A stretch of 64,000 nucleotides of DNA from Eledone cirrhosa (Eukaryota). Under the pieces are notes generated by a model, which was not told where the DNA came from, did no database searches, and saw nothing but the letters and a program-made list of their open reading frames with translations. The first letter of the stretch is position 1; every line of letters begins with the position of its first letter. The DNA lies in NCBI GenBank assembly GCA_964016885.1, contig OZ024740.1:10602001-10666000 (forward strand), in the 5' to 3' direction. Below, piece by piece: positions 500 through 60,593 of the stretch. The translations under genes were made by a program, and so were the position numbers.

Positions 500-572
500 T
501 CAAGTGTGTGTAGAAGGAATTGAAGAAAAATCGTCCAGTCATCAGTTATGGTTGCTTCTTTACCAAGTTCAG
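500..572 (+). CDS. MRM1: Internal coding exon of a SpoU-family rRNA methyltransferase (MRM1-like): (x)QVCVEGIEEKSSSHQLWLLLYQVQ
   Basis: Acceptor ttattattcag ends at 499 and donor gttagt starts at 573. The exon is 73 nt and ends in phase 0. It joins in frame to DPMNFGAILRS at 58062, giving QLWLLLYQVQDPMNFGAILRSA, which matches SpoU motif 1 of MRM1. Confidence 0.82.
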
Positions 573-56100: not shown

Positions 56101-56988
56101 GCCTACTTATAGTTAGATAGCAACACAACATATTTATAGTTAGATTGCAACACAACATACATATAGTTAGATAGCAACACAGCCTGCTTATAGTTAGATA
56201 GCAACACAACATACATATAGTTAGATAGCAACACAACATACATATAGTTAGATAGCAACACAACATACATATAGTTAGATAGCAACACAGCCTGCTTATA
56301 GTTAGATAGCAACACAACATACATATAGTTAGATAGCAACACATCCTACTTATAGTTAGATAGCAACACAATATAGTTATAGTCAGATAGCAACACAACA
56401 TATTTATAGTTAGATAGCAACGCAGCCTACTTATAGTTAGATAGCAACACAATATAGTTATAGTTAGATAGCAACACAACATATTTATAGTTAGATAGCA
56501 ACACAGCATACTTATAGTTAGATAGCAACACAACATATTTATAGTTAGATAGCAACACAGCCTATTTATAGTTAGATAGCAACACAGCATACTTATAGTT
56601 AGATATAAAAACAACATATTTATAGTTAGATAGCAACACAACATACATATAGTTAGATAGCAACACAACATACATATAGTTAGATAGCAACACAGCATAT
56701 TTATAGTTAGAGAGCAACACAACATATTTATAGTTAGATAGCAACACAACATATTTATAGTTAGATAGCAACACAACATACTTATAGTTTGATAGCAACA
56801 CAACATACTTATAGTTTGATAGCAACACAACATTTATAGTTAGATAGCAACACAACATTTATAGTTAGATAGTAACACAATATATTTATAGTTAGATAGC
56901 AACACAACATATTTATAGTTAGATAGCAACACAACATATTTATAGTTAGATAGCAACACAACATTTATAGTTAGATAGTAACACAGCC
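2200..56988. repeat. 27-bp tandem satellite/minisatellite of ~54.8 kb (~2,000 units); consensus TATAGTTAGATAGCAACACA + (ACATATT | GCCTACT | other variants)
   Basis: Directly visible continuous head-to-tail array in one orientation. Occasional 25-bp units occur (e.g. ...ACACAACATT). The first units at ~2200-2300 are degenerate. The array ends abruptly at ACACAGCC (56988). Confidence 0.99.
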
Positions 56989-57068
56989 AGACAAGGAATA
57001 TTGAATAGTTTCGTTGTTGTTACAACTCATCAGCAATATTTACCTATCTACCGGCCCCTCTGGAGAAT
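56985..57068 (-). ncRNA. Inverted, degenerate copy of the hammerhead ribozyme
   Basis: The reverse complement reads AATATTG-CTGATGA-GTTGTAACAACAAC-GAAACTATT-CAATATT. It lacks the G of stem III (ACTAGT becomes ACTAT) and is truncated in the distal 3' arm of stem I at the satellite junction. Confidence 0.75.
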
Positions 57069-57604
57069 TGTAAAAGCACATATCGTTATATGCTTTTTCT
57101 ATGAAAATTAGTAGTGGGCAGACTAATTTGCATAGAGTGTGAGTACGCACCATTTCAGCGGAGACGATAAAAACAAATAACGAAACGAAATTAAATTTCG
57201 TTTCGTTTGTAACTCACTGGCTTTCTGGAGAATAGAGGGAAGGTGTTCCCCCGAAAACCAGTATGACTCTAAAAACCGGTTTGTCTGTGTGTTTACATAC
57301 AAAATAGCTGGGTTGCTCACAGTAAAGCAACCAGTGAAAGACTTGTTACACCTACATATATATACGTGTGTGTATTCATATACACACTAGTATTTCAGTA
57401 TGCATATGTAGATGTACATTTTTAACTTAATTGTTTAAGCGTCAGTCATACAAAAGTGAGTTACAAACGAAACGAAATTTAATTTCGTTTTGTTATTTGT
57501 TTTTATCGTCTCCGCTGAACCGGTGCGTACTCACACTCTATGCAAATTAGTCTGCCCACTACTAATTTTCATAGAAAAAGCATATAACGATATGTGCTTT
57601 TACA

Positions 57605-57700
57605 ATTCTCCAGAGGGGCCGGTAGATAGGTAAATATTGCTGATGAGTTGTAACAACAACGAAACTAGTTCAATATTCCTTGTCTGGCTTTCTGGAGAAT
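57605..57700 (+). ncRNA. Type I hammerhead ribozyme with a minimal palindromic stem III
   Basis: Stem I is AATATTG (57633-39) with CAATATT (57671-77). The core is CTGATGA (57640-46), stem II is GTTGT-AACA-ACAAC (57647-60), then GAAA (57661-64). Stem III is the palindrome ACTAGT. The triplet is GUU, with a predicted cut after 57670. Stem I extends distally through ATTCTCCAGA (57605-14) and TCTGGAGAAT (57691-700). Confidence 0.88.
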
Positions 57701-58061
57701 AGAGGGAAGGTGTTCCCCCGAAAACCAGTATGACTCTAAAAACCGGTTTGTCTATGTGTTTACATACAGAATAGCTGGGTTGCTCACAGTAAAGCAACCA
57801 GTGAAAGACTTGTTACACCTACATATGTATACGTGTGTGTATTCATATACACACTAGTATTTCAGTATGCATATGTAGATGTACATTTTTAACTTAATTG
57901 TTTAAGCGTCAGTCATACAAAAGTGAGTTACAAACGAAACGAAATTTAATTTCGTTTCGTTATTTGTTTTTAATATAAAATAAATTTAAATTATATTTGT
58001 TTGCATGAGTTCACTTTGATTTATGTTGAAGCAAATATTTCTTTCAATAAAGTATTTTCAG

Positions 58062-58141
58062 GATCCTATGAACTTTGGTGCCATTTTGCGCAGTGCTTAT
58101 TACCTTGGTGCAAACAAAGTCATTTTCTCAAAAGAAAACAG
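58062..58141 (+). CDS. MRM1: Coding exon, SPOUT motif 1: DPMNFGAILRSAYYLGANKVIFSKEN(S)
   Basis: Acceptor tattttcag ends at 58061 and donor gtaatt starts at 58142. The exon is 80 nt, phase 0 to phase 2. D-P-x-N-x-G-A-I-x-R is the SpoU/TrmH signature. Confidence 0.92.
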
Positions 58142-60278: not shown

Positions 60279-60593
60279 GTGATGTGTTGTTTCCTTGAGC
60301 AAGACACTTTATTTCACATTGCTCCAGTTTACTCAGCTGTAGAAATGAGATGTTAGGACTTGGGGTCCCTATCATTCCACTGCTAAGTGGTCGTGGATGT
60401 GCCACGGCAATAAAGCACCCAGCCCACACTGTAAAGTGGACGTGTAGGCGCCACGGAAAAAAAGCACCCAGCACTCACTGTAAATGAGGTTGGTGTTAGG
60501 AAGGGCATCCAGCTGTAGAAATCAAGCCAGAATCAGTTCCCGTCCCACCCTTGCAAGCAGGGAAAAAGCGGACGTAGAATGATGATGATGATG
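60279..60593 (+). mobile_element. Family 1 SINE copy, tRNA head largely lost
   Basis: Highly similar to 1182-1445, including the internal duplicated AAAGCACCCAG..CACTGTAAA segment. Ends in a (GAT)n tail. Confidence 0.85.

Follow-up and report, generated by a model that had tools for sequence, protein, structure and literature searches.

A high-copy hammerhead retrozyme family in Eledone cirrhosa, likely copied by a Penelope-like reverse transcriptase-endonuclease

An inverted and tandem 467-bp repeat beside a satellite array

The window analyzed here is a 64,000-nucleotide stretch of the Eledone cirrhosa genome (assembly GCA_964016885.1, contig OZ024740.1, positions 10,602,001 to 10,666,000 of the forward strand). 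An intron of a gene resembling the SpoU-family rRNA methyltransferases contains a short element built from a 467-bp unit, which we number from window position 57219 (u1). The features of the locus, in window coordinates, are as follows.

2200 to 56988, plus strand: array of a 27-bp satellite, given as context only; the element adjoins its last unit
56981 to 57051, minus strand: second hammerhead, antisense, with a truncated stem I and a 1-nt deletion in helix III
56985 to 56988, no strand: 4-nt microhomology AGCC between the last satellite unit and the element, forming the left junction
56985 to 57218, minus strand: inverted arm, u237-467 plus u1-4, 98.3% identical to 57455-57689
57219 to 57233, plus strand: orphan 3' arm of stem I, identified from sequence, left over from the inversion
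57219 to 57685, plus strand: full 467-bp unit, u1-u467, noncoding, with a longest Met-started frame of 20 aa
57432 to 57437, plus strand: upstream fixed end site of the family, u214-219, read through in the window copy
57438 to 57506, plus strand: 69-nt 'tail' between the two fixed end sites, containing a 29-nt palindrome at 57466-57494
57540 to 57547, plus strand: ATGCAAAT, kept in a sister family and lying within a predicted hairpin
57605 to 57700, plus strand: type I hammerhead with a long stem I and its core at 57640-57670
57686 to 57972, plus strand: partial unit, u1-287, stopping at the downstream fixed end of the family (u286-288)
58062 to 58141, plus strand: exon of the SpoU-family rRNA methyltransferase-like host gene (SpoU_methylase, E 7.3e-5, under the curated cut-off)

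The initial annotation had read the element as rc(A)-B-A-B-partial A with a period of 467 bp, and self-BLAST confirms this order, with copies that are 98.3-98.6% identical. The direct repeat pairs 57217-57505 with 57684-57972 at an offset of 467 (98.6%, 4 mismatches), and 56985-57218 is the reverse complement of 57455-57689 (98.3%, 3 mismatches and 1 gap). From left to right, the layout is therefore an inverted u237-467 with u1-4, then u1-467, then u1-287. Beyond the 20-aa frame no coding capacity was found in the unit, nor any LTR. The 754-nt direct arm gives a predicted fold of -242 kcal/mol (z -9.95 against 20 dinucleotide shuffles), and the upstream end site at 57432-57437 is predicted to form the loop of a small hairpin that is kept in the sister family. 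We take ATGCAAAT to be an octamer-like motif. Newt satellite 2 has an snRNA-type promoter with an octamer.

The long stem I had been described as crossing the unit junction, and the fold bears this out, with stem I extending from 57605 to 57700 over 57685/57686. The core motifs are CTGATGA (57640-57646) and GAAA (57661-57664), the cut is predicted between 57670 and 57671 at a GUU triplet, and helix III is a single A-U pair closed by a palindromic CUAG. The orphaned 3' arm with which the first B segment was said to begin is likewise present, at 57219-57233, and the inverted ribozyme lacks one G (u450) of the palindromic helix III. No Rfam model matched anywhere in the window at gathering score; by E-value, Hammerhead_HH9 aligned to 57622-57693 on the plus strand (38.6 bits, E 5.3e-8) and to 56981-57051 on the minus strand (32.4 bits, E 5.3e-6), both against a gathering score of 52. 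Matches to miRNA and sRNA models in the same E-value search were rejected as low-complexity hairpins far under their cut-offs. In the family, each unit has a type I hammerhead with an intact core, the inverted window copy being damaged. Hammerheads with a one-pair helix III and a palindromic loop are described as cutting efficiently only as dimers (PMC4209133, PMC7229834), and the ribozyme of this family is predicted to cut only in that form. The window copy is predicted to cut poorly, because its single intact sense ribozyme has no sense partner, and having only one such ribozyme it would also not be 'active' by the rule given in a recent preprint (10.64898/2026.07.22.740005).

The satellite edge and exon recur in two paralogues, at 30.39 Mb of C1 (L151) and 98.52 Mb of C6 (L152), which are without the element and represent the empty site. 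Relative to these, the element replaced 317 or 314 bp of intron, from the last AGCC of the satellite to a TA 89 nt before the exon; it lies in the preceding intron of the host gene, on the same strand, 89 nt upstream of the acceptor. Its right end is the normal downstream site of the family and shares a TA microhomology with the target (57971-57972). Its left end is joined via a 4-nt match at u1-4, beside the start of the direct arm (u466-u1), and the junction is placed at AGCC on the basis that both paralogues run on into target DNA past those four bases. We infer that AGCC at 56985-56988 was the second priming site of the window copy, a left-end geometry that we take to be twin priming. No target-site duplication was found at the window locus. 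A seeming empty allele in sample S1 was considered as an insertion polymorphism and ruled out, as its letters and flank variants are also those of two paralogous loci in the assembly.

The 27-bp satellite itself extends over about 54 kb within a single intron (573-58061) of the SpoU-like gene. One 42-aa exon of this gene, used as query for homologues, gave no match. Paralogue L152 joins straight to sequence matching window position 60545, without about 2.3 kb that is present in the window. One contig from run X4 joins window 538-567 to 58057-58141 and continues to 61212, bearing the variant of the paralogues; as it links distant blocks of the window it is spliced, and X4 is therefore probably RNA.

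Two fixed ends throughout a dispersed family

Searching the 3.0-Gb genome with the unit at the DNA level returned 660 candidates, with 225 matches among the 40 scored, and an exact 36-nt ribozyme core occurs 5,098 times genome-wide (control 0). The downstream end, with u288 running into TA, is found 2,287 times. Upstream-site ends number 579 on the forward strand, which is the usable figure, the reverse count of 1,175 being inflated by overlapping matches. Copies are short and dispersed (median 981 bp), reach about 20 pure units in array length, and fall into several subfamilies, their identity to the window unit lying between about 84% and 100%. These counts dispose of the possibility, raised by the initial annotation, of a single-copy sequence lacking tandem arrays, and its retrozyme class reading is right. 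Copies and tandem arrays were found as anticipated, but among 100 fetched family loci no arm reaches an ORF. This is a new non-LTR retrozyme family of an already known class.

Covariation in the ribozyme can be followed across 15 distinct variants from the subfamilies and the sister family, in which 96.7% of cells are paired and 6 of 16 ribozyme pairs are altered on both sides; as about three lineages underlie these changes, the independent covariation events are few. The subfamily nearest the window has GUU as its cleavage triplet, more divergent subfamilies have GUC, and the sister family has GUA. GUU supports weak cleavage, and the youngest subfamily, combining GUU with a one-pair helix III, may be a poor cutter.

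The sister retrozyme family has a unit of about 483 bp that is colinear with the present one and ~66-72% identical in matched blocks (L111:7218-9501, L121-L150); it has 11,109 core matches, the GUA triplet, and an internal (TA)n of variable length. A third tandem hammerhead family, with a 310-bp unit (L215:1-1261), runs out in TA and has a palindromic helix III and a UAACAA loop 2 in common with the unit. In addition, two pairs of near-identical insertions with flanks in common (L031/L032 and L186/L187) are segmental or assembly duplicates. Contigs with pieces of the unit, in the letters of a more divergent subfamily, were found in runs X5 and X6 from two other organisms, and for this reason the family may extend to related species.

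In order to describe the insertions, we inspected the 40 top-scoring loci and 60 stretches, which cover all but three of the first 63 downstream ends in the C1 list, leaving out L032 (duplicate of L031) and L187 (duplicate of L186). For the tally of arm ends and cut sites, L157 and L204, which ran off the stretch, were also left out. Among 165 arm ends longer than 40 nt at the resulting 96 loci, 92 fall at u286-288 and 67 at u209-220, accounting for 159 of the total. Two fixed end sites are therefore present, at u214-219 and u288, about 70 nt apart and bounding a tail of 69-74 nt. The positional sample on C1 comprises 59 loci chosen via their u288 end. An inverted arm terminates at u205-221 in 42 of these and is lacking in 14; a single locus shows another end, and the remaining 2 ran past the limits of the stretch. 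TA lies on the left side in all 42 of the two-arm loci. The typical arrangement is thus two head-to-head arms, one from each fixed site, within (TA)n. The same pairing is seen from the opposite direction, as a divergent u288 end lies no more than 10 kb from 29 of 55 upstream-site ends on C1, where 0.9 are expected. One locus (L048) has two u288 ends.

Target-site duplications were assessed in 60 two-end candidates, of which 49 are pure TA, where length is undecidable, 10 are informative and 1 has none. The informative duplications measure 12 bp in four cases, 13, 14 and 17 bp in one each, and 28-30 bp in three with periodic flanks, none being shorter than 12 bp, as against the minimum of more than 4 bp for TSDs of non-LTR retrozymes; measurable duplications are mostly 12 bp with TA at both ends. 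No poly(A) tail was found, and the 3' ends fall inside the repeat. In the sister family, two ends 59 nt apart occupy the homologous positions, and both end sites are predicted unpaired or loop positions of hairpins common to the two families. A tail between two fixed ends, an inverted 5'-truncated copy and an AT-rich or microsatellite target, all marks of Penelope-like elements (PLEs), are therefore present together. The inversion in the window had been taken for a PLE-typical inverted arm; the family does carry the PLE marks, but the window inversion is its rare twin-primed form, found in the window copy and L058 and accounting for 2 of 165 arm ends.

The template and the copying enzyme

Markers inside the arms bear on the template. 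A rare variant is found in both arms of one locus at 9 of 31 two-arm loci, compared with 1.4% of between-locus arm pairs, which proves one source lineage, not strictly one molecule. Sites that vary between rounds of the repeat are represented in both arms at 4 positions in 3 of 59 two-arm loci, and the arms agree at 4 of 4 at rounds 0 and 1, with one departing at round 2. Both arms thus read unlike units in register at three loci; for at least part of the insertions, therefore, the template was a multimer whose units differed, and the two arms began in the same unit. Arms pass over the cut site u453 296 times and stop in u449-457 3 times, against 3.1 expected, and no pile-up of 5' ends at the ribozyme cut was found among 167 ends. 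As stops are not in excess at the cut site, the template was an uncut multimer or a circle, both of which fit these data equally; unless jumps from one to the next are efficient, linear monomers released by cutting did not usually serve as template. The 3' arm of stem I does hold 18 of the 167 5' ends versus 10.7 expected (p 0.02, for an interval picked after looking). The multimeric or circular RNA source proposed at the outset is accordingly upheld as far as multimers at three loci, and the 467-nt monomer circle is not needed.

Subfamily markers are discordant between arms in 11 of 33 comparisons, mostly through single-unit changes. At L035 and L054, periodic variants of 2 and 4 units are missing from the opposite arm, so that duplication at the DNA level probably also enlarged some of the long arrays. 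Contigs over the unit in run X4, one bridging 57550-57711 with the cut site, carry the letters of a more divergent subfamily; they indicate presence in a probable RNA library and are compatible with a circle, an uncut multimer or intronic read-through.

The genome contains 10,597 GIY-YIG candidates, of which 150 were scored, and fifty PLE stretches form 8 clusters. One young family is Neptune-type, with RT, CX4CxxC and GIY-YIG (L101, 938 aa; 49 scored copies at 86-100%). Its ends occur at two sites 66 nt apart; of 39 ribozyme-bearing ends, 14 at one site and 13 at the other run into TA. The family also shows inverted arms and TA targets, and its ribozyme is a minimal U3-A8 variant. No terminal repeat homologous to the unit was detected by BLAST and nhmmer in 80 PLE stretches (L071-L120, L213-L242), a partial sample of PLE diversity. 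Unit matches near PLEs were considered as homology to PLE pseudo-LTRs (pLTRs) and proved to be separate retrozyme insertions beside them. Because no examined PLE has sequence in common with the unit, we infer the partner from insertion anatomy and leave it unnamed. Mobilization in trans by a PLE reverse transcriptase, as first suggested, is supported by the fixed ends, head-to-head arms, (TA)n targets and matching autonomous PLEs, with the partner read from the ends; the unit family has no RT and GIY-YIG ORF inside the element.

With respect to the PLEs themselves, most copies of the L101 type (L101, L213-L242) have a 775-aa RT-EN frame with the first Met 162 residues in, and L101 is open over 938 aa, an arrangement that suggests a frameshift or an intron between two frames. 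Recoding at a conserved TGA of young copies was dropped as an explanation, since the TGA sits before the 775-aa frame and not within it. The 3' regions of four other PLEs (L113, L117, L119 and L120) have deviant minimal hammerhead-like cores with a common ACCGGT palindrome; all run out in TA, several with two end sites.

We favor, with a probability of roughly 85%, a recent insertion of a high-copy noncoding hammerhead tandem repeat, likely copied by a Neptune-type PLE RT-endonuclease. The PLE enzyme would nick both target strands; with one uncut RNA, multimeric or circular, as common template, each nicked strand would be primed at one of two internal sites and extended over a random length before the two cDNAs are joined. 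In the window copy, the first strand would have begun at u288 as usual, and the second target end would have annealed by 4 nt (AGCC) next to the stop of the first cDNA, which would have produced a twin-priming inversion and removed 314-317 bp of target. The predicted dimeric ribozyme would release 467-nt monomers, which may circularize.

An unlikely though better surviving alternative is that the unit is the pLTR of an unseen autonomous PLE and the arrays are 5'-truncated tandem pLTRs. Vertebrate retrozymes are often pLTR-homologous (preprint 10.64898/2026.07.22.740005) and our PLE sample is small in relation to all GIY-YIG candidates, but the 100 fetched loci with no arm into an ORF, the arrays of ~20 pure units and the 80 PLE stretches without homology all speak against it, as does the canonical type I ribozyme of the unit, unlike the U3-A8 minimal variants of PLEs in this genome. 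We regard as highly improbable that a LINE or other non-PLE RT mobilizes the element and that the inversions arise by twin priming in the manner of L1. Two loci, the window copy and L058, do show the geometry that this predicts, the outer end of the inverted arm adjoining the start of the direct arm with microhomology, but they supply just 2 of 165 arm ends, poly(A) is absent, and two fixed 3' sites inside the repeat are described as PLE-unique (PMC11167929). Least probable of all is that the arrays are satellite DNA, dispersed and inverted through DNA-level events, in which the ribozyme is a passenger, a reading that the periodic blocks in L035 and L054 and the adjoining 54-kb satellite would suit, but that is largely refuted for dispersal and plausible only for the growth of long arrays, as fixed ends, TSDs, TA targeting, dispersed short copies and compensatory ribozyme changes are not expected from unequal crossing-over.

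Returning to the favored PLE reading, the insertion anatomy supports PLE-type double priming on uncut RNA. A more specific version, which we advance tentatively, is that the arrays record double priming by a PLE enzyme pair on one uncut RNA, and that the unit and its two sister families are free-standing mimics of PLE tails by shape, not derived from a pLTR now in the genome, possibly with an snRNA-type promoter of their own. If so, double priming at sites 70 nt apart explains the PLE tail and the inverted pLTR in one step.

Relation to known retroelements

In L1 twin priming, an inversion is formed with microhomology at an internal site; unlike it, the window copy has a target deletion and no TSD, and the form is rare in its family. 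Plant LTR retrozymes also differ, with a type III hammerhead in LTRs and a 4-bp TSD, compared with a type I hammerhead and a TSD of ~12 bp here. Closer relatives are the non-LTR retrozymes known from corals, mussel and axolotl, for which circular RNA was shown and PLE partners were proposed (PMC7229834). These share noncoding tandem units with one type I hammerhead each and no LTR, GC content under 50%, thousands of copies, a highly paired predicted RNA and coexisting PLEs, and the axolotl HHR_Amex1 likewise has a helix III of one pair plus a palindromic tetraloop (PMC7229834). The 467-nt unit is slightly above the 150-450 bp range reported there, and the main text of that paper, in which the word 'inverted' does not occur, does not describe fixed double ends or head-to-head arms. 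Our literature survey, mostly of the main text of open-access papers, found no retrozyme described from a cephalopod and no account of retrozymes inserted head to head from two sites.

The link between animal retrozymes and PLEs has so far consisted of co-occurrence and partial homology. The preprint of Li, Clavereau and Pollet (2026, 10.64898/2026.07.22.740005) describes vertebrate retrozymes as non-autonomous PLE derivatives; in Xenopus, 24 of 57 retrozyme families match Repbase and 21 of 22 hits are PLEs. The present family belongs to the same class, with the same proposed partner and a unit within their 51-972 bp, and no mollusc appears in the sample as set out in the preprint text. The vertebrate link is made by co-occurrence and pLTR homology, whereas here it is made by insertion anatomy, no pLTR homology having been found.

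It is in this anatomy that the value of the family lies, as it is otherwise ordinary as a repeat. Tails and inverted copies are known PLE marks, and the origin of the tails and inverted repeats has been called undefined (Craig et al. 2021, PMC8557442). Here, short insertions with both of their junctions number about two thousand, they carry internal markers, and a young candidate enzyme is present in the same genome; the type of template and two-strand priming on one RNA thereby become directly testable. As in EN+ PLE insertions (PMC8557442, PMC11167929), we see 5'-truncated partial tandems, an inverted 5' copy, a tail at one end only, microsatellite or AT-rich targets and internal initiation at two sites; unlike them, the family has no ORF, and its tail is 69-74 nt compared with 30-40. 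For an anole PLE studied in vitro, both target strands are extended, cDNA starts at two sites inside the RNA, which delimit the tail, and ribozyme cleavage is not required for insertion (Frangieh et al. 2024, PMC11167929). The two strands are reported as equal in start site in that system (PMC11167929), whereas in Eledone nearly every two-arm insertion has one of each.
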